Part shown: positions 21,264 to 61,457 of the stretch, piece after piece | Position numbering within the stretch: position 1 is the first letter of the stretch | Layout of the letters: every line of letters starts with the position of its first letter | Program-made: the position numbers and the translations under genes | Notes under the pieces: model-generated | Databases searched by the model: none | Seen by the model: the letters and a program-made list of their open reading frames with translations, nothing else | Told to the model about the DNA's origin: nothing | Origin: a virus | Direction: 5' to 3' (one strand) | DNA length: 64,000 bases | Virus record (IMG/VR): IMGVR_UViG_3300040801_006072 | Coordinates: 180 to 64,179 of that record

Positions 21264-21287
21264 CCTATTGTTTTGATTTTCTATTAT

Positions 21288-21749
21288 TTATCTTTTTGTA
21301 GTAAAAGTGCTACACATTTTTCGGATGGACTCTTTTGAGTCTCTTGCTAGCTGTTTAGACACTTGATATCGAGCCTGCATGATATCCATGAGGTCGTAAT
21401 TCCTTTCAGCTCTAGCATTTCGGTGGGTAACAGAAAAATATCTCATATCATGGTGATGCTTGACGTAGTCACACTCGAGTGCAAGAACCTTTTTGATCTT
21501 TTCTCTGTTATTCAGTTGAAAATATTTTGCTAATAAAAGGGCAGCTTCTAGCAAATAGATATCGGAATAAAGTTTACGACCGTCTGTTTTGCGAACGAGG
21601 TCGAAATAATTATCTGTTCTTCTGCGAACTGCGACATCGCCTATCACAAATTCTTTTTGATTTTTAGCCAGCATTCGTCGATTTTCATAAATTTCGGAAG
21701 CGACTCTATCGACTAATTCTGCAAAGCTTTCTTTAACTGAGGACACCAT
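21288..21749 (-). CDS. hypothetical protein
   Basis: 153-aa ORF. Confidence 0.65.
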   Translation of the reverse strand: MVSSVKESFAELVDRVASEIYENRRMLAKNQKEFVIGDVAVRRRTDNYFDLVRKTDGRKLYSDIYLLEAALLLAKYFQLNNREKIKKVLALECDYVKHHHDMRYFSVTHRNARAERNYDLMDIMQARYQVSKQLARDSKESIRKMCSTFTTKR

Positions 21750-33149: not shown

Positions 33150-33527
33150 CTATCCTCTCGGAAGAGTATCCATCTCGTTCCAGTAGTCCATCGGATCTTG
33201 ATATCCGTTCTTTCGTGCTGCTGCGTTTAGCTTGTCCATATCGAAATCTCGATACTTTCTAAACAGCATATCAATCGGATCGCCATCTGGATACACCTGA
33301 CCTACCATATCGGTAAAGATTCTCCAGTACTTGTCTAGTAGCTCACCTTGATCGGGTTTGTCTTTTGAAGGCGGAACAGTTGCTTTCCATGCTGCAATAC
33401 CTTCTGCATCTCCCGGACGAAAACGCTTGGTCTTACCAGTAATAGGATGAGTTGCAACTACGCGGCCTGGTGCCTCTTCCAGGTCTTCGTTATTTACTGC
33501 TGATTCTGTGATCTCATAAAGTCTCAT
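33150..33527 (-). CDS. hypothetical protein (MRLYEI N-terminus)
   Basis: 125-aa ORF ending TAG. Confidence 0.65.
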   Translation of the reverse strand: MRLYEITESAVNNEDLEEAPGRVVATHPITGKTKRFRPGDAEGIAAWKATVPPSKDKPDQGELLDKYWRIFTDMVGQVYPDGDPIDMLFRKYRDFDMDKLNAAARKNGYQDPMDYWNEMDTLPRG

Positions 33528-33949
33528 TATCCACCTACAAATTTTTGTCCGTCAAGATAGTCTTCTGGTCCGTCTTTCATTGTGGCATACTTGCCTGACT
33601 TGGTTCCTGCGATCTCTTTCTCTTTAACAGTATCGATGTCTTCTAGATCATAATCAATTATTCCTGCTTTCTTGGCATTTTGGAATACTTGCTGTACTAA
33701 AGGATCTTGACGATGATGCTTATCTTTAAGCAAATACCGACGAAGATCATCTAATTGCCATGATACGATTCCCTCATAGTGTTCTGCTTCGTCATAATCA
33801 ACAACGTCTTCGTCGCCTTGTCCAGCGTGACCCGCTCTAAGCCAAAGACTGTCTACATGATCAATTGCTTTAATAAGATCGCTGAGCTCCATTGCAGACC
33901 AGTTGTGTGTATTCTCAGTTACGCTTTCTGTAATTTCTTTAACTTTCAT
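33527..33949 (-). CDS. hypothetical protein (MKVKEI N-terminus)
   Basis: Start reassigned to the ATG at 33949, overlapping the previous gene. Confidence 0.65.
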   Translation of the reverse strand: MKVKEITESVTENTHNWSAMELSDLIKAIDHVDSLWLRAGHAGQGDEDVVDYDEAEHYEGIVSWQLDDLRRYLLKDKHHRQDPLVQQVFQNAKKAGIIDYDLEDIDTVKEKEIAGTKSGKYATMKDGPEDYLDGQKFVGG

Positions 33950-34823
33950 CTTGCATATATTTAGCAATTTCTGAGGGGTACTCAAAATTGCCACCCTTTA
34001 CTTTTGTCTCTTGGAAATTTTTAGCCATCTCTTTAAAAATTGCTTCTTGTTCCTTTTCGCCGAACGACTTTTTAACTGCTGCTACAATTGATTCGACCGA
34101 ATTCAACGACTCTTTCCCCGCCTGCCCTTTAAATAGTGTTTTTGCAATTTTGTCAGCATCACGAAGGGGCTCAGTGAGCACAACTTCTTCTTGCTTTTTG
34201 ATGGTTTGCCCTGTACGACTATTTATGCGACTTTTTCGATGAACTTTCACTAGTCCGTCTTTCGGAGACCATTTCCATCGAATAACTTCCTGTGGTCTTC
34301 CGAAATCGTCGAGCTCGGAAGTTGCATCTCTATCCAGGTGAGCAGCGACTGCGCAAAGAGCTACATTACGGTGTGCTCCTTTCAGTTTTGATTCCCCTTC
34401 GCCTGGCGAATGGCGATACACCTTAAGCCAATCCTTTTCGCCGAACATGAAGTCAACCTGTACATACCCTGTTCTGGGATGTCGTTGATCGTTATCGGGA
34501 TTGTAATTTTGAATAGGCGCATTAATTGACAACAATTGCCCTTGCCGTCTAACAGAATCAGACCCGAACACACTTTGCAGTTTGTTATGAAATGCTTCAA
34601 GTGCCTCGGGCTGTAACGGATCTACTACAACATCGATATCACCAGAATACTCTTTCTTGCCTACCGATCCTAATACTCGGTTATCAAGGTCTTTAATCCC
34701 GGTAATCTTTTGTAGATATTTGAGAGTGGGTTCGATTTCACTCCGATGTATTACACCGGAGTTGTCGAACATGTTGCCTCCCTCGTTAATTACAGGAGAG
34801 GACTTGATTTCGCTGAGGCGCAT
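33939..34823 (-). CDS. putative Pol-beta-superfamily nucleotidyltransferase (MRLSEI N-terminus)
   Basis: LGSVGKKEYSGDIDVVV (GS...DxD) plus a downstream VQVDFM third acidic residue. Confidence 0.7.
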   Translation of the reverse strand: MRLSEIKSSPVINEGGNMFDNSGVIHRSEIEPTLKYLQKITGIKDLDNRVLGSVGKKEYSGDIDVVVDPLQPEALEAFHNKLQSVFGSDSVRRQGQLLSINAPIQNYNPDNDQRHPRTGYVQVDFMFGEKDWLKVYRHSPGEGESKLKGAHRNVALCAVAAHLDRDATSELDDFGRPQEVIRWKWSPKDGLVKVHRKSRINSRTGQTIKKQEEVVLTEPLRDADKIAKTLFKGQAGKESLNSVESIVAAVKKSFGEKEQEAIFKEMAKNFQETKVKGGNFEYPSEIAKYMQDES

Positions 34824-34825
34824 GT

Positions 34826-35050
34826 TTAAAGGTCTATGTCGAAATCTTTAATGATAGACTTGTAATTGCCCACAAGCTTGTCTTGCTTCGACCACATCGC
34901 TTCGATTTGCTTGAGGGCCTGGGTTGCACGACGATCTCCGACTTGCTGTTTTTTCAAGTCTGATATAATCTTGCGGTATTGACGAGCTGTTAGTTTAAGA
35001 TCATCCTCGATGTTCTCGTCAACTGGTTTTTTAATTTCACTCAGACGCAC
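34826..35050 (-). CDS. small hypothetical protein (MRLSEI N-terminus)
   Basis: 74-aa ORF. Confidence 0.6.
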   Translation of the reverse strand: MRLSEIKKPVDENIEDDLKLTARQYRKIISDLKKQQVGDRRATQALKQIEAMWSKQDKLVGNYKSIIKDFDIDL

Positions 35051-35054
35051 AGTA

Positions 35055-35519
35055 TTACCATTTACGACACGACCAGTATCTGGCCTTGTGCTTCGGTCCC
35101 GGATTATCGCAGTTATGTCTAGCTCTGAAACTTTTTCTTGCTTTAGGATTAGACTTTTTAATCTTCATGTCTGGATCACCAAAGTTTACCTTAACAACAT
35201 TGCCTTTGGGATTCTTCACATAAACTTTAAATTTTTTAACATCGCCTCGCATTGGCTTGTTTAGTTTAACTTTGCGTCCTTGATACTCTGCTTCGCCCAA
35301 CGATGACTCAACCTCCTCGTCTAGCAAGTCAGATTCGAAAAATACTTCCTCGACTTCTTCTAAGGTAATTTCGTCTAGTTCGTAGCCTTCTGGGACACAG
35401 TTAGGAACCTTTTTTCCGTTCTTTGTTTTGTGTCCGACCATTTGATAGCCTTTCCAGCAAGGGTCGCCGCCTTTAATTCTTTTATTTTCACCTTCATTTA
35501 AAATATCAGAAAGTCTCAT
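35055..35519 (-). CDS. conserved phage protein with PCWKGY and FRARHNC motifs (MRLSDI N-terminus)
   Basis: DPCWKGYQMVG...VPNCVP and KSFRARHNC...ARYWSCRKW, motifs I recall from T4-like/cyanophage proteins. Confidence 0.75.
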   Translation of the reverse strand: MRLSDILNEGENKRIKGGDPCWKGYQMVGHKTKNGKKVPNCVPEGYELDEITLEEVEEVFFESDLLDEEVESSLGEAEYQGRKVKLNKPMRGDVKKFKVYVKNPKGNVVKVNFGDPDMKIKKSNPKARKSFRARHNCDNPGPKHKARYWSCRKW

Positions 35520-35799
35520 CTGGATTTTCCCCTACGCACTGATTATGCTTTTCCTGCGCTTTATATTCCAATGAAGTTCTTGCGCTATCTAGATAATCTT
35601 TTGCCAGTGTAATTTTTGATTGAACCTAGCCCTCTAGACCCTCACTTTCGGGAATATCTTTAATAAGGTCATGCAAAAACTTGCTGTCTTGCTGTATGCG
35701 ATGCAAGGCAGCTTTGGCCATATGCACTTCATGATCGTCCTTTTGGTTATAAGGATTATCAATTGCCTTCTGCGGAATCTGGATTTCGTCTAATTTCAT
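35506..35799 (-). CDS. 97-aa protein with an in-frame TAG at codon 58 (readthrough candidate); missed by the ORF track
   Basis: Manual translation: MKLDEIQIPQKAIDNPYNQKDDHEVHMAKAALHRIQQDSKFLHDLIKDIPESEGLEG*VQSKITLAKDYLDSARTSLEYKAQEKHNQCVGENPDETF. It fills the 35520-35811 gap exactly and overlaps the next start. Confidence 0.8.
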
Positions 35800-35811
35800 A
35801 CTGGTATTTAT

Positions 35812-36426
35812 CTATTGTATCTTATCTATCACCAGTCGGTTGACCCAACCTCGAATAAACCTTTCCTGTGTGCTGTCTTCTTCGGCTCTTCCTACGTAAA
35901 ATGAGCCGCGCAATATAAGCAATAGCTTGAGCACGTAAATATCGCTCTCTACGCTAAGACACTTGGTTAGTGCCATAGCAGTACGTGTTCCTGCCCAGCC
36001 GTCGACTTTGAGATCTTCGAACAGTGCTTGATCACGATTCAGCATGTTTAGCGTCCTTTGCAGGAATTCTGCTGCTCGCTTCACACCCATGTTAACAGAA
36101 CAATCGAACATTTCTGCTGCAATTTCTTTAGATTTGCTGCTCACACTGTCTAGGTTTAACTGACTGTGGTTCCAGAAGTTCTCGTAATAAAAGTGTTTAA
36201 CCCAATAATTAAGTTCTTCGTCGGCATACAAGCATTCAGGAAAATCTTCTTGCTCCTTTAGTTCGTCTACAACTTTCCAGCCAGGCCAATTAGGCCAATA
36301 AACTCTGCTCACACCCTTATATGTTTCTCCGCCATAGTCAGAAGGATCATCTACATAGCCTCCTTCGGCACTGCGAGTGAAAGCATAAGCCTCTAAAAAT
36401 ACTTCAGGTATAGCTACGTCTGTCAT
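35812..36426 (-). CDS. glycoside hydrolase family 108 lysozyme with peptidoglycan-binding C-terminus
   Basis: EGGYVDDPSDYGGETYKGVS, MFDCSVNMG, LQRTLN and FIRGWVNR. Confidence 0.92.
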   Translation of the reverse strand: MTDVAIPEVFLEAYAFTRSAEGGYVDDPSDYGGETYKGVSRVYWPNWPGWKVVDELKEQEDFPECLYADEELNYWVKHFYYENFWNHSQLNLDSVSSKSKEIAAEMFDCSVNMGVKRAAEFLQRTLNMLNRDQALFEDLKVDGWAGTRTAMALTKCLSVESDIYVLKLLLILRGSFYVGRAEEDSTQERFIRGWVNRLVIDKIQ

Positions 36427-37889
36427 GATATTTCTCCTAGCTGTCTTCCGACTAGCAGTTTAATTAGGTCTTGTGTGCTATCTGCGGATTTAGCACCTTT
36501 CTTCATGTTTTCTAATTCACCGAACAGTGATGCAAACGCCTGTAGTGTTTTCTTGTCGACTTCGTCTGTGTAGCCAAATTTTCTTTTGCTGTCGCCCACG
36601 TCAAGCTCGATGCTAAGATCAGCTTTGGTATCGTTATATTCTGACAAAAGATTTTCTAACTTGGTTTCGTATTGGTTGATTACACTGACCCAATATTGTT
36701 GTAACTCGGGGAAGTTAGTACCGTCTGCTAGATTATCTAGTATCTCTTCACGACTGTCGCCCTGCTTCCTAAGATGACGCTTGGCCTGTGTAGTACCTAG
36801 TTCAGGGTGACCAATGGCAGAAGATAAGCTGCCTAGAAGCTTACCTAAGAAACTCTCTACGGTGTTGACTGACCTAGGCTTTTCGCGAAGGTCGTTGCGC
36901 ACTTGCCATATAAAGTCTTTTGCTGTAGTAAACAGATCTTTGTCCACTACCTTGAACTGGTCGCCTGTTTTCTTGTGGCGGAATACTACGCCTTCAATCC
37001 AACCACCATCTTCGACTTCTGGGCCAAATTCGCTTTTGATTTGTCTAACCAAGCGATTAAGCAGAATTTCTTTGATGCGCAGCTTATAGCCATCTTTGCT
37101 TTCGCCGCCTATCATTTCATGCTGTATTTCTTCTCGCTTGGTTTTAAGCTGCTCTTTGACACTACGCCAGTTTTGGGGTTCTACGGAATCTGGTCTACGG
37201 TTTAAAGGTAGTGCCAAAACTTCTGCATTTGAAAACTTCCATACACCAGAAGGCTGTTTAAGATATGCTTCTAATTTATCGAGCTCTGCATGAATGCGAT
37301 CTTTTATCTCATCGTCTATCATGCTTTCACTGTCCCATGTGGGTGTCCTGCTAAAAGACCAGCGGTGTGTTTCTGGTGCAGTCTTGATTGTCTTTCCGTC
37401 AACAGTATAAGGTGCGTTTACACGAACTGTAACGATATCTCCGTCTAATGCTTTATGAAGATGGGCAATGTCTACGTCACCCTCAACTACTCGCAAAAGA
37501 ATAATCTCGTTCTCTTCGCTTGAGTAAGGTACTGCATTAGGTAGTGTACCAAACAGAACTTCAACTTCTATTCTGTCACCGCTTCTCATTCCGGCTTCTC
37601 GCATAACAGAAGCCTTTTGTTCTAGTGCAAGGTGAGCGGATCGCTGAAAGGTAGTAGAAAAATTAATGGGATAATCGTCAGCATTGTAAACTCGCTGTCC
37701 TCCCTTATCCTCACGAGTGGTGTAGAAGCCGTAGTCGTCAATGCCGAACTGTATATTGGCGCCATCTACTTTTTCAGATATCTCGTAATCTTCAAAGTTT
37801 CTCAGTGCATCTATAAACTGATCAACTGCGAGATCCTCGACGTGAGTAATGCCTTCGAATGTTGACTTACGTAGTTCGCCGAATTTCAT
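36423..37889 (-). CDS. putative ATP-grasp nucleotidyltransferase / RNA-ligase-like protein (MKFGEL N-terminus)
   Basis: Motif I-like SEKVDG, EVLFG, EGVVF and QFKVV. Confidence 0.6.
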   Translation of the reverse strand: MKFGELRKSTFEGITHVEDLAVDQFIDALRNFEDYEISEKVDGANIQFGIDDYGFYTTREDKGGQRVYNADDYPINFSTTFQRSAHLALEQKASVMREAGMRSGDRIEVEVLFGTLPNAVPYSSEENEIILLRVVEGDVDIAHLHKALDGDIVTVRVNAPYTVDGKTIKTAPETHRWSFSRTPTWDSESMIDDEIKDRIHAELDKLEAYLKQPSGVWKFSNAEVLALPLNRRPDSVEPQNWRSVKEQLKTKREEIQHEMIGGESKDGYKLRIKEILLNRLVRQIKSEFGPEVEDGGWIEGVVFRHKKTGDQFKVVDKDLFTTAKDFIWQVRNDLREKPRSVNTVESFLGKLLGSLSSAIGHPELGTTQAKRHLRKQGDSREEILDNLADGTNFPELQQYWVSVINQYETKLENLLSEYNDTKADLSIELDVGDSKRKFGYTDEVDKKTLQAFASLFGELENMKKGAKSADSTQDLIKLLVGRQLGEIS

Positions 37890-41623: not shown

Positions 41624-42511
41624 TTAGCTTCTGAGTATAATCTTCTTAAGTGTGCCGGGTTCAACAACTTCCATTGAAGGTGTGTACCTGAACTTAAAGA
41701 ACATCACGTTAGCTTCAAACGAAAATGCTTGGGTCCCAAAGAATTCGATGAACTCGAGCATCTCCGATCCGGTCACTACCTGAATATTAAACCAATGGTC
41801 TGTTGTCGGATCGCTTTGTGGATTGATATCTAGTGTACCTAACAACTCTAGTGTTCCTGTGAATCTGTTGTCCTGGTCGGTATACACAGAAAAACTGTGA
41901 GTAGAGTTAGTATGGTTCTGTACTCTACCTGCAGGAATAGTGGAACTATAAAACTGACTGATGATAGGTGTATTTCCGTTTACCAGTGTTCTCTGTTCTG
42001 TCCAATCATCTTCCTCGATGATGAAACTAGGCCTAGGCACACGTTCTGCTTGGCCTGTAATTCTCACTGTGGTAACAATGTTGCTATCAGTATCAGTAAA
42101 TACCGGAGTAGTAAGTGACTCACCAATGCGCCCTGGTACAAAGTCCTTTTGTCCTACAATTACCAATTCATACAATCCTTGTGCAAGGTTTGCAATATCA
42201 CCTTCGTTCAAATCCAAAAATAGCATTCCGATTGCAGTGTTTGTTCTGCAAGGCTTTTCGAGCACTAGCTCACGATTTTCAGTATTAAACAATCTACCGT
42301 ACAATTGATAGGTGCAGATGTTTATTGGCTTACGGTCCGGATCAAACACACGGAATTTCAACGTATTATCCATGCCTTTGTGGACTTTAATTTCTCGACG
42401 GTTCATAGGCGCATTATCCGTATCGATGCAGGTGATCCTATCGTCGCACATGAGTAGACGTCGAACGTCGTCAAATAGATAGAGATCAGTCAGTGTTGTT
42501 TTCATGTACAT
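41624..42511 (-). CDS. hypothetical protein, possibly structural
   Basis: 295 aa; IKVHKGMDNTLKFRVFDPDRKP. Confidence 0.7.
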   Translation of the reverse strand: MYMKTTLTDLYLFDDVRRLLMCDDRITCIDTDNAPMNRREIKVHKGMDNTLKFRVFDPDRKPINICTYQLYGRLFNTENRELVLEKPCRTNTAIGMLFLDLNEGDIANLAQGLYELVIVGQKDFVPGRIGESLTTPVFTDTDSNIVTTVRITGQAERVPRPSFIIEEDDWTEQRTLVNGNTPIISQFYSSTIPAGRVQNHTNSTHSFSVYTDQDNRFTGTLELLGTLDINPQSDPTTDHWFNIQVVTGSEMLEFIEFFGTQAFSFEANVMFFKFRYTPSMEVVEPGTLKKIILRS

Positions 42512-42577
42512 ACAGCTATTTATCTGGATGTTACCAAGAATTCATAGGGGACGAATAGCTCCATAATAAATAGCTTT

Positions 42578-42946
42578 GTGGATATTACAGAAGTACAAGA
42601 AAAGTTCCCGTTCCTAACCGGTCTGAAATACCAAGATCGGGAATTCCTCTGCATCATACAAAATCATAGTGACAAGATCATGAGCTTCTATGATTTCAAT
42701 CAAATCTCCACATCAGCAGAAAAACAACTGTTTTTAGACTATGGCGATACATGGTGGTGGGAATCGAACAGACTTCTGCCTATCAATATCTTCCTAACAG
42801 GAAAAATGGCTCACTTCAGGTACTGCTTAAAAACAGTAGCAATGAAAGATGTAGAAATTCTGTTCGGTCCCACAACAAGTCTTAATAACCTAATGAAGAA
42901 AAGAATCAAAAAGCGTCAGATTCAACTCGTTAGGAAATCCGATTAA
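42578..42946 (+). CDS. hypothetical protein; the only convincing plus-strand gene
   Basis: EKFPFLTGL...YGDTWWWESNRLLPINIFL; fills an otherwise empty gap; ATAAATA on the plus strand just upstream. Confidence 0.75.
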   Translation: MDITEVQEKFPFLTGLKYQDREFLCIIQNHSDKIMSFYDFNQISTSAEKQLFLDYGDTWWWESNRLLPINIFLTGKMAHFRYCLKTVAMKDVEILFGPTTSLNNLMKKRIKKRQIQLVRKSD

Positions 42947-43626
42947 ATCTTCTTTCCTTTTAGCACATCCTTTAACACCAACTTATTATTTGTAGAATGA
43001 ACCAATACCGTGTTGTCCTTCTCACGGTAAGTTTTGATCTTATCTCCACGCATACCCGATCCTGCTAGATCTTTGCACATTGCTTTCTCTTCGCAGCGCC
43101 GAATTGACTCGTAATGTTCGCGAACACGCTCTTCTAACAAACGCCTAGCTTCGGTGCGATTATAGTGCTGGCACTTCTTTGCGCTTTTCGCTTCAATGCC
43201 CGTTGGCAAATGTCGCATGACGACACAGCTTTCAGTTTTGTTGCGATGTTGGCCGCCTGGGCCAGAATCTTTAGTTGTGAATGTTTCTATGTCACTATCA
43301 TGTAACTCGTAGTTCACAACATCTTGTTTCTTACGAGCAACCACAGTCACAGTAGAAGTGTGCACACGACCACGAGTTTCCGTAGGTGGGACTCTTTGCC
43401 AGCGATGGCCGCCGGATTCATTCAGTAAGGGTTGTAGGTTTTTCTCTTTACCAGAACAGCAAAGAGTAATGGAATTTCAGCCGCAGGCTGCTCGAGACTC
43501 AGCAATGGTCTCTACGTGAAGATTGTGCTTGGCACAGTAATTTTGATAAATCGATGCTTGCTTCTCTACTAATAGCTTTGCATCATCGCCGCCTTCGGCA
43601 GCTCTAATTTCAAGTAGTAATTTCAT
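42943..43626 (-). CDS. truncated RF1-type peptide chain release factor with an in-frame TGA at codon 50
   Basis: MKLLLEIRAAEGGDDAKLL...AACG*NSITLCCSG...NESGGHRWQRVPPTETRGRVHTS...SGPGGQHRNKTESCV. GGAGG RBS before the ATG at 43626; TGA at 43479-43477. Confidence 0.88.
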
Positions 43627-49681: not shown

Positions 49682-49703
49682 AATCTTCTCCCATTGCAGA
49701 CTG

Positions 49704-49732
49704 ACAGTAGCAATATTTAGCTTCGATGTCAA
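49704..49732 (-). promoter_or_regulatory. sigma70-type promoter downstream of the tRNA
   Basis: TTGACA-17 nt-TACTGT. Confidence 0.6.
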
Positions 49733-49740
49733 CCTATGTT

Positions 49741-49816
49741 TGGTGCTCCGGGTGGGACTCGAACCCACGACCGGCGGTTTTAGAGGCCGCTGCTCTGCCA
49801 ACTGAGCTACCGGAAC
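49741..49816 (-). tRNA. amber suppressor tRNA (anticodon CUA), Trp-like anticodon arm
   Basis: GTTCCGG TA GCTC AGTTGGCA GAGC A GCGGC CT CTA AA ACCGC CGGTC GTGGG TTCGAGT CCCAC CCGGAGC A CCA; 76 nt, encoded CCA, C31-A39 mismatch. Confidence 0.93.
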
Positions 49817-49826
49817 GTATGTAGCT

Positions 49827-49855
49827 ATAGTAGCAATATTGCTCTTCGTTGTCAA
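49827..49855 (-). promoter_or_regulatory. sigma70-type promoter for the suppressor tRNA
   Basis: TTGACA-17 nt-TACTAT, ending 11 nt before the tRNA 5' end. Confidence 0.8.
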
Positions 49856-53577: not shown

Positions 53578-54858
53578 TTAAATAAAAGTGTACGTATATT
53601 TATCAAAAAACTCTTCCCACTCGACTGATTCGTGAACAGGTGTTTTTGGTTCTTGGGCTGGCTGTGGCTGAGAATTTTCTAAAACACTTGAAATGATATC
53701 TCTTTCAAATGCTGTTAGTTCGGATTCTTTGCATAGCTTTCTGCCAATCTTTCCTACGTATGCTGCAAGGTCTTCATTCTCTACAATACGACCTGCAAGA
53801 TCAATTAAGTGGTTTCCCATCTTTGCTTCTTGGCTGGAAAATTCTACAACACTGTCCATTACGGATACTCGGTCTGTTACATAAACTGTTGCAGATGCTG
53901 CTTCTTCAATTTTACGAAGCTTCTGTTCTTTCTCTGTTACCAAACGATTTACGATCGGAAGAACGTCGTCAAACTTTTCATCAAAGCGCTTAACAGTGAA
54001 CATGTCACGAAGTGAAGAAAGATCAACTTCACTTTCCTGTAGTTCCATATCCTGCTCTTCGATTCGAGAACTAATAGACTCATATGTCTTCATGCCCGAA
54101 AGTCTTTTTAGTTCAGTTTTGATTCCTTCGATGTTTTCTTTGACTGTAGCAACTACGTCAGTAGTATCTTCGTTAATTAAGTTATTAGATTTCACATAAC
54201 GCAAAAATTCATTTAGGCGAAGTAGGTGGCTAACACTTTCGGTAACGTAACTTCCAACAATATCGTGCATTTGGCCGCCTGCTGCCAAGTGGCGAGCCAT
54301 TGCTCTAGCACCACCCAAGTGGTTATGTGGGAAGCGGAATTTTTCTCCGCCCATCTCTAAAAAGATAGACTGGATGTTGCGGCTTCTAGCACCACGTGAC
54401 TCTTCGTCTACCGGTGTCTTGTGCTTAACTAAAATGCGAACATTTTCTAGTGTTTGATGGCTAGTCTTTTTGCTACCATCCATTTTAGAAAGTCCTTCTG
54501 CTACGTTTGTCATCTGGTTATTCCTTTCTATCTTTGCTTTGTACGAAAAATCTTTTGGCTTAATAGACTTGTTGTAGTTTCGCACAGTGTAATTCATTAA
54601 AAATTCATTTGCCAGGCGCTTCATGTTTCGCTGCAACTGTCGATTTTCATCTAACGATTGAGTGTTGCTTTGGCTTAATTGAACTTCGTTGTTTTGTTCG
54701 TCAATAGTAACCATAAGTCCGCTATCTGTTGAAAAGAAGCGTTTTGCAGCAGCAGGGTCTACAGTTTCTGTTCCCTCTGCTGTATACATTTTGACCTGGT
54801 GTCCGAAACCTTTCATAACACCGAAAATCTTTTCAGCTAACTTATCTACTAGTATCAT
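53578..54858 (-). CDS. hypothetical protein (possibly head morphogenesis)
   Basis: 426 aa; RSRNIQSIFLE..GEKFRFPHNHLGGARAMARHL; late-promoter motif upstream. Confidence 0.7.
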   Translation of the reverse strand: MILVDKLAEKIFGVMKGFGHQVKMYTAEGTETVDPAAAKRFFSTDSGLMVTIDEQNNEVQLSQSNTQSLDENRQLQRNMKRLANEFLMNYTVRNYNKSIKPKDFSYKAKIERNNQMTNVAEGLSKMDGSKKTSHQTLENVRILVKHKTPVDEESRGARSRNIQSIFLEMGGEKFRFPHNHLGGARAMARHLAAGGQMHDIVGSYVTESVSHLLRLNEFLRYVKSNNLINEDTTDVVATVKENIEGIKTELKRLSGMKTYESISSRIEEQDMELQESEVDLSSLRDMFTVKRFDEKFDDVLPIVNRLVTEKEQKLRKIEEAASATVYVTDRVSVMDSVVEFSSQEAKMGNHLIDLAGRIVENEDLAAYVGKIGRKLCKESELTAFERDIISSVLENSQPQPAQEPKTPVHESVEWEEFFDKYTYTFI

Positions 54859-54876
54859 AAACTGTATTTATCTAAA

Positions 54877-57594: not shown

Positions 57595-58095
57595 CTATTT
57601 ATCAGAGTTGTCGGAAACTATTGCACCCTTGATGTGCTTGAGTAGGTCTGCTCGGTCAAATTCGGAAGAATTATCGTCGTCATCGTTGTTGCCGGTATCT
57701 TTATCGATCTTCATCTTCTTTAACTGAAGATCAATCATTTTCAGCTTCTTGCTAACCTTTGCATCTTTGGCTTCCATAGCAGTTTTCAACATAGTAGCAG
57801 CAACTTCAAGGACCTTACCTGTGTGCATGTCTGGCATATTTTTACTAAGGTCGTTTAGCTCTTTAAATGACGTTAGTGCTCTTTCTGCAATGTCGTCCAT
57901 TTCGTCGTCATGTTCGATGAGACCAGTAACACTGTTTAATGCTAGATCGATCTTTTCCGAATTGCTTAACGCCTTCATGACCTCAACTGCTTCTGCTATT
58001 GCTTCCTCTTTCGACGGCGCAGAGATTTCTTCTTCGGCTTCTTCAACTTCATCCATTGGAGGCAAGTCTAATAATTCTTCTAAACGTTTAGTCAT
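57595..58095 (-). CDS. putative terminase small subunit-like protein
   Basis: Helical 166 aa (MTKRLEELLDLP...KLKMIDLQLKK) near terL; ends TAG TAA; function inferred from position. Confidence 0.45.
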   Translation of the reverse strand: MTKRLEELLDLPPMDEVEEAEEEISAPSKEEAIAEAVEVMKALSNSEKIDLALNSVTGLIEHDDEMDDIAERALTSFKELNDLSKNMPDMHTGKVLEVAATMLKTAMEAKDAKVSKKLKMIDLQLKKMKIDKDTGNNDDDDNSSEFDRADLLKHIKGAIVSDNSDK

Positions 58096-61403: not shown

Positions 61404-61457
61404 GTTATTCTCCTAAGAACAAAAATGCTTGCATGTATTTATCAAATGAAGAAGAAT

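Follow-up and report, generated by a model that had tools for sequence, protein, structure and literature searches.

Between an endolysin-like gene and a gene for a 154-residue protein, the window (the whole 64,000-nucleotide stretch of viral DNA analyzed here, positions 180 to 64,179 of IMG/VR record IMGVR_UViG_3300040801_006072) carries a frame on the minus strand that is interrupted by a single TAG codon. We refer to this frame as the hidden gene. The locus comprises the following features, given in window coordinates:

35812..36426, minus strand: GH108/PG_binding_3 endolysin-like gene, ending in TAG-A (Pfam)
35805..35812, minus strand: GATAAATA, a late-promoter-like motif, 5 nt before the ATG of the hidden gene (motif count)
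35506..35799, minus strand: hidden gene of the hairpin family, TGA stop included, with one TAG inside (ORF reading and homology)
35626..35628, minus strand: the in-frame TAG, codon 58, at an invariant Trp position (homologue alignments)
35055..35519, minus strand: 154-aa gene composed of two modules, which elsewhere are fused C-terminally to the hairpin domain

The hidden frame runs from ATG 35799-35797 to TGA 35508-35506 and comprises 97 codons, reading MKLDEIQIPQK...GLEG, the TAG and VQSKITLAKDYL... before the TGA is reached. The TAG at 35628-35626 is the sole in-frame stop before the TGA, and no second lesion, i.e., neither a frameshift nor a further stop, was found in the 97 codons. This agrees with the initial annotation of the locus, which had described one frame with a lone TAG at codon 58, an overlap with the start of the next gene and a likeness of the MKLDEI N-terminus to neighboring genes. 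The last 14 nt of the extended frame overlap the next gene, whose ATG is at 35519-35517, and the neighbors begin with MRLSDI (35519), MRLSEI (35050 and 34823) and MRLYEI (33527). Translation with table 11 recovers only a 57-aa ORF (35626-35799) and leaves 106 nt at the hidden gene apparently non-coding; the coding share of the record is otherwise 96.8%. A paralogue of the hidden gene was not found within the 69-kb record. The endolysin-like gene lies in the same frame, its TAG being followed by the codons for INTS and then by MKLDEI..., and the distance from its TAG to the next TAG amounts to 61 codons. Double readthrough from the endolysin into the hidden gene would give a fusion of ~306 residues.

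The same TAG is present in an independent 1,680-bp contig (L002, JGI sample 3300040779). This contig shows 99.94% identity to window positions 35250-36929, and the sole difference is a SNP at 35286, which results in the exchange E78D in the next gene.

An exhaustive phmmer search was performed with X written at the stop against 1.84 billion representatives, applying a cut-off of E<=1e-3. It returned 982 homologues whose alignments span query residues 19-85, the best 150 hits having E-values of 1e-13 to 1e-8. The similarity to the DHEVxMA...GWVQSKIT family is significant over the full domain, and the relatives align across the TAG with Trp opposite X. Among the best alignments, Trp occupies this position in 145 of 148; the three remaining rows are spurious secondary HSPs (E 1.5-7), leaving Trp in all 145 true alignments. 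Two curated alignments, with 53 and 116 sequences, likewise show Trp only, and the corresponding codon is TGG in 80 of 80 IMG/VR loci. The family motif given in the initial annotation proved correct in that homologues read DHEVQMA...EGLEGWVQSKITKAADY, and the TAG falls, as had been proposed there, exactly on the invariant Trp that relatives encode by TGG. The gene is thus real, and so is the TAG at its invariant Trp codon.

At the level of individual motifs, the N-terminal helix motif D-H-E-V-x-M-A is fully present in the hidden gene (D22, H23, E24, V25, M27 and A28), and the second-helix motif G-W-V-Q-x-K-I-T-x-A-x-D-Y is complete except for the Trp, which is replaced by the TAG. As DNA, the hidden gene is therefore a clear family member, and its table-11 product is cut before the second-helix motif. 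Residues Q60, K62, I63, T64, A66, D68, Y69, L77, E78 and Y79 are all kept 3' of the TAG, and 16 of the 18 positions conserved at >=90% are retained, the differing ones being Trp58 and V73. The two halves were also scored separately with an HMM built without the window sequence, in which the family rows themselves were included. The N-half reached 51.5 bits against a family mean of 62.7 and the C-half 28.6 bits against 34.7, giving a C minus N score of -22.9 in comparison to -28.0 +/- 4.7 for the family. Judged by these half scores, decay of the C-half after the stop is no worse than that of the N-half. The decay expected 3' of the TAG in a pseudogene was not seen, as no further lesions are present and the conserved residues are retained.

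Nonsense codons at this position were sought with the pattern E-G-stop-x3-K-I-T-x-A-x-D-Y. With TAG, neither IMG/VR nor 241 million metagenome records gave a match, and with TGA or TAA there was likewise no match in IMG/VR, whereas the same pattern with TGG gave at least 120. The nonsense codon therefore is unique to the lineage of the hidden gene. As TAG is absent from other family members, its sole case is in a genome with a CUA tRNA, and the stop type at codon 58 is the type decoded by this resident tRNA. For close relatives of the hidden gene, a word-index protein search gave the truncated self only, and locus scans with single proteins, run on viral and metagenome contigs, returned nothing, neither for the hidden gene nor for the endolysin and a 488-aa neighbor. 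No intermediate relatives were found, and the sole other copy of the hidden gene is the 99.94% identical one described above.

AlphaFold2, run on the 53-sequence alignment, predicts a helical hairpin with helices at residues 23-46 and 57-89, and pLDDT is above 95 across residues 21-80. According to this model, termination at codon 58 would leave a 57-residue fragment without the entire second helix. Searches of Pfam and PHROGs gave no family for the hidden gene or its homologues, Foldseek against BFVD and PDB returned nothing significant for the hairpin domain, and the ESM Atlas neighbors of one homologue (P0014) were viral 'hypothetical protein' clusters only. The hairpin family is large and virus-only. 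Its domain occurs in Flavobacterium myophages and in T4-like cyanomyophages, a likeness to T4-like phages, with SSM2_109 of S-SM2, located between gp16 and gp17, as a cyanomyophage example. Across 116 proteins the domain stands alone or is fused to many unannotated regions, and fusion partners include DUF3008 in 10 of the 116 and PG-binding domains in two.

The two modules of the adjacent 154-aa protein are a Cys-rich 'DPCWKGYQMVG' module and a gp1.1/HVA1-like one. Both are fused C-terminally to the hairpin domain in P0071, P0042, P0021 and others, and SSM2_109 unites hairpin and 154-aa-gene modules within one protein. These arrangements point to a shuffling family of small modules. By a loose pattern, the leader M-K/R-x-x-D/E-I/F starts 93 of 149 family members. 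Unrelated adjacent proteins (window 33150-37889) share such leaders, often with L-x-E. A leader of this form with L-x-E is reminiscent of the T4 capsid-targeting sequence, and the hidden gene may in this respect be similar to the capsid-targeted internal proteins of T4. The product of the hidden gene is probably a virion or internal protein.

A motif upstream of the hidden gene had already been noticed, and GATAAATA does lie there, at 35812-35805, separated from the ATG by 5 nt. The final base of the upstream gene's TAG stop doubles as the first G of the motif. The window holds 14 such sites in comparison to 2.1 expected, a number that 0 of 100 shuffles reached, and all 14 are on the minus (coding) strand (e.g., 61436-61443, 57596-57603 and 21285-21292). 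The motif is found 5-32 nt upstream of 11 gene starts, including that of the gene for the tail tube and those of four genes for virion structural proteins. In most cases it precedes the start of a structural gene with a Shine-Dalgarno sequence by 20-32 nt. For the canonical TATAAATA, three sites were counted in the window, which corresponds to chance level. By in silico comparison with T4-type late -10 elements, a TATAAATA-like element precedes both the hidden gene and structural genes; this likeness to T4 late genes, i.e., GATAAATA before structural genes, is known here from the sequence alone. Three of the motifs end close to an ATG, at a distance of 5-6 nt, namely at the hidden gene and at two genes for virion structural proteins:

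35805-35812, minus strand: close-spaced GATAAATA, gene start at 35799
42517-42524, minus strand: close-spaced GATAAATA, gene start at 42511
54865-54872, minus strand: close-spaced GATAAATA, gene start at 54858

Provided that GATAAATA acts as a T4-late-type -10 element, a spacing of 5-6 nt suggests that these three genes would have leaderless late transcripts. The presence of the motif before the hidden gene supports ATG 35799 as a genuine late-gene start.

The record has a length of 69,037 bp, is 19% complete according to CheckV and has nearly all of its genes on the minus strand. Proteins encoded in the window include TerL, tail sheath, tail tube, RNR, a DnaB-type helicase and a gp32-like SSB. 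TerL identity amounts to 65.8% with PA5oct-like jumbo phages, 56.6% with Atu_ph07 and 51.5% with Sinorhizobium phage Phosso, and homologues of two window genes were found on contigs of 300-390 kb. The phage is a marine T4-superfamily jumbo myophage. It uses the standard code, with one in-frame TAG. Coding density is 96.8% with table 11 versus 95.6% with TAG as sense, and ORFs of >=70 aa end in TAA (55), TGA (16) or TAG (12). TAG terminates about 12 minus-strand genes, which are normally packed, and the hidden gene is the only TAG-containing frame in the 69 kb that fills an unexplained gap. Terminal TAGs are mostly followed by T or C, as are TGA and TAA stops. Of the hallmarks of a recoded (code-15-like) phage, a phage-encoded suppressor tRNA is present; many in-frame TAGs are not, and TAG has not been dropped as a terminator.

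This suppressor tRNA and a release-factor gene are encoded further along the window:

49741..49816, minus strand: tRNA with anticodon CUA, class I, A73, CCA encoded (ARAGORN; Rfam tRNA, 63.2 bits)
49827..49855, minus strand: sigma-70-like promoter, TTGACA-17-TACTAT, TG-extended, 10 nt upstream of the tRNA (sequence)
42943..43626, minus strand: short RF1-type release-factor gene with an in-frame TGA at codon 50 (PCRF and RF-1 domains, PPT tripeptide)

ARAGORN and Rfam found only this one tRNA in the window. Near-identical promoter-like sequence lies on both sides of it (49700-49740 and 49827-49855), with TTGACA-N17-TACTAT/TACTGT and a shared AATATTGCTACT. An exact match to its anticodon arm was not found in IMG/VR. 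A CUA tRNA is present at the syntenic place, upstream of the helicase, in the relatives L215 (helicase 76% identical) and L213 (71%). The orthologous tRNAs (L213:5312-5387 and L215:1718-1793) follow a NADAR-domain gene and precede that of the SF2 helicase. Two further relatives, L212 and L214, are without the CUA tRNA, so that the suppressor marks a sub-clade. In a comparison of the three tRNAs, 95% of cloverleaf cells are paired and five pairs show compensatory changes, and G1-C72, U2, A73 and the loop U33-CUA-A37-A38 are kept in all three. The CUA tRNA is a genuine and conserved gene, and it appears to be functional. As it is conserved at a syntenic locus with 71-76% helicase identity, it is older than the TAG of the hidden gene.

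Over its full length, the window tRNA matches phage tRNA-Lys(CUU) at 62 of 70 positions, the T arm and A73 being identical, and phage tRNA-Trp at 51-55 of 70. Its anticodon arm and variable loop are nearest to phage tRNA-Trp. The L213 orthologue has a different anticodon stem, has lost the Trp-likeness and finds its best match in tRNA-Met. Assigning the isotype by likeness is unreliable, because the window tRNA best matches Lys and this orthologue Met. At the discriminator, all three phage tRNA-Trp references have G73, and the window tRNA and both orthologues have A73; from bacterial tRNA-Trp (su+7) the window tRNA differs by A73 and G1-C72. Derivation from tRNA-Trp, as in a suppressor of the su+7 type, is not supported, since G73 is missing and the body is nearer to tRNA-Lys(CUU). 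The TAG had also been suggested to be the counterpart of a CCA to CUA change in the tRNA. Given A73 and G1-C72, a body closest to tRNA-Lys(CUU) and a Trp-likeness that is lost in L213, this idea is unsupported. The change TGG to TAG is simply a one-step mutational route from Trp. According to the identity rules of E. coli, A73 and U35 suit LysRS, and bacterial TrpRS and GlnRS want G73. Under these rules, the conserved A73, G1-C72 and U35 fit Lys best and bacterial Trp or Gln poorly. Synthetase domains of the TrpRS, LysRS or GlnRS class were not found in the 69-kb fragment. The combination of an RF1-type factor with an amber suppressor is the reverse of the pairing in TAG-recoded phages, which have RF2.

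The closest relative with context, L209, is on the same contig as L213. There, a 488-aa ligase-like gene is directly followed by homologues of the 74-aa and 294-aa genes, and the endolysin, hairpin and 154-aa genes are absent from the L209/L213 locus, though the tRNA is present. From this gene order, the endolysin gene, the hairpin gene and the 154-aa gene form a cassette in a variable region. The relative has the tRNA without the cassette at this locus, and the main role of the tRNA therefore lies elsewhere. No TAG-interrupted ORFs were seen in ~75 kb of the relatives' loci.

We consider it somewhat probable that the hidden gene is a real late gene in which a TGG to TAG change is tolerated through partial readthrough by a pre-existing, conserved amber suppressor. 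The ancestral TGG at the invariant Trp position would have changed to TAG by one transition in this lineage. The conserved suppressor tRNA, with its own sigma-70-type promoter, would read UAG at some frequency in competition with RF1, and readthrough would yield the full 97-residue protein ending at the TGA that overlaps the start of the next gene. The TAG would have arisen as a nonsense mutation made tolerable ('detoxified') by the resident suppressor and would not be a designed target. Since the phage carries a conserved amber suppressor, UAG should be read at some frequency, and we infer that the CUA tRNA is charged and reads codon 58. Against this reading, the 69 kb hold no other in-frame TAG, TAG still serves as the stop of about 12 genes, and the RF1-type factor of the phage would favor termination at UAG. 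Lys or Gln at the invariant Trp position may render the product defective. The initial annotation had called the gene a natural target of the suppressor. Its standing as a candidate holds, as the gene homology spans the TAG; selection for such a role is not borne out, since the TAG is the lone one in 69 kb and is unique to the lineage, and the gene is absent from this locus in tRNA-bearing relatives. Being unique to the lineage, the TAG lacks the evolutionary depth that would reveal selection.

The hidden gene might instead be a recent pseudogene, i.e., a dispensable accessory gene inactivated by the TGG to TAG change, for which readthrough would be irrelevant and the tRNA coincidental. We regard this as unlikely, although it deserves serious attention. 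A single, lineage-specific event would suit it, as would a three-gene cassette missing from the closest syntenic relative and scores of both halves that lie ~2 sd under the family mean (the HMM containing the family rows and not the hidden gene). An A73 tRNA is moreover unlikely to restore an invariant Trp faithfully, and relatives as well as XacN1 have CUA tRNAs without known targets. However, the 97 codons hold no second lesion, 16 of the 18 conserved positions are retained, neither the promoter motif nor the stop/start overlap is damaged, and the TAG is fixed in two assemblies. TGA would have been equally accessible, yet the stop is TAG, and the genome has a conserved CUA tRNA. A sequencing or assembly error at a true TGG codon, for which one G/A difference would suffice, is very improbable, as the independent contig from JGI 3300040779 has the same TAG yet differs at 35286.

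A similarly slight chance is given to the view that the hidden frame is a C-terminal extension of the endolysin, fused to the GH108 protein by double readthrough. The two share a frame with a TAG plus four codons between them, and one family member joins the hairpin to a PG_binding_3 domain. In E. coli, an A at +4, as found after the TAG of the endolysin-like gene, is a favorable suppression context. Yet a frame match has a 1-in-3 chance expectation, the family member bearing PG_binding_3 has the opposite domain order, and two suppression events would be needed. The hidden gene has, in addition, its own start, a leader-like N-terminus and its own GATAAATA motif, which argues against a mere extension. 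Selection of the TAG as a programmed gate is doubtful as well. Here, a late protein would depend on, or be dosed by, the build-up of the suppressor tRNA, possibly tuned by the UGA-gated RF1-type factor. An amber suppressor with an early-type sigma-70 promoter and an RF1-type gene with an in-frame TGA are encoded in the same record, the TAG gene stands behind a late-type motif and adjoins the endolysin gene, and Borges et al. (10.1101/2021.08.26.457843) propose such logic for lysis and structural genes. However, the gate would have a single target, and neither relatives nor other family members share the TAG. Compared with TGA and TAA stops, terminal TAGs are not set in a special anti-readthrough context, and the +4 G of the hidden TAG is simply inherited from TGG-GTN. 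A complete circuit of conserved suppressor tRNA, UGA-gated RF1-type factor and TAG-gated virion-internal gene, in which Trp or a substitute is restored via a non-canonical identity set (A73), is in our estimate improbable.

Tolerated readthrough of the hidden gene can be compared with the recoded gut phages (crAss-like, Lak, Agate and similar ones). For these, acquisition of a suppressor has been proposed to detoxify in-frame stops, which could afterwards be put to use in the regulation of late and lysis genes (Borges et al., 10.1101/2021.08.26.457843). Common to both are a phage CUA tRNA, an in-frame TAG in a late gene adjoining a lysis gene and a release-factor gene in the same genome, which fits the proposed detoxification step. 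In contrast, the phage described here is a marine jumbo myophage that uses the standard code, is 96.8% coding with table 11 and has a single in-frame TAG. In the recoded phages, TAG maps to Gln and the TAG-recoded ones carry RF2 (Borges et al., 10.1101/2021.08.26.457843), whereas here the TAG aligns with Trp and the release factor is of the RF1 type.

XacN1, RsoM2USA and Phosso belong to the same phage supergroup, have standard-code genomes and encode similar CUA tRNAs with the CTCTAAAAC loop, combined with A73 in Phosso and in XacN1 Sup1. For XacN1, all 18 amber stops were read through in silico and no target was found for its two CUA tRNAs (PMC5852040); the window phage, in contrast, has one gene with clear homology across the TAG. 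RsoM2USA carries one CUA suppressor for which no target was shown (PMC8504454). The adjacent CUA tRNAs of XacN1 (L083:5998-6156) differ in discriminator (A73 and G73) and acceptor stem, and thus possibly carry different amino acids. Classical amber mutants (T4 am on su+ hosts; E. coli su+7 tRNA-Trp CUA) likewise combine a one-step TGG to TAG change in an intact gene with a CUA tRNA acting against RF1. The difference is that here the mutation is natural and the suppressor phage-borne.

A phage suppressor tRNA together with an in-frame stop is a known theme, to which the hidden gene adds a new variant. The gene is a rare candidate for a natural target of a jumbo-phage suppressor tRNA, and the first concrete candidate in the jumbo-myophage group, though it may represent a tolerated mutation only. 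If the stop-codon circuit were true, it would be the first defined natural target of jumbo-phage suppressor tRNAs. As a testable substrate, the hidden gene gives access to UAG reading during infection and to the residue inserted, and it bears on isolated in-frame stops as a first step to the full recoding of gut phages. Should the TAG prove to be no more than a tolerated nonsense mutation, it would still illustrate the proposed 'detoxification' stage in nature.
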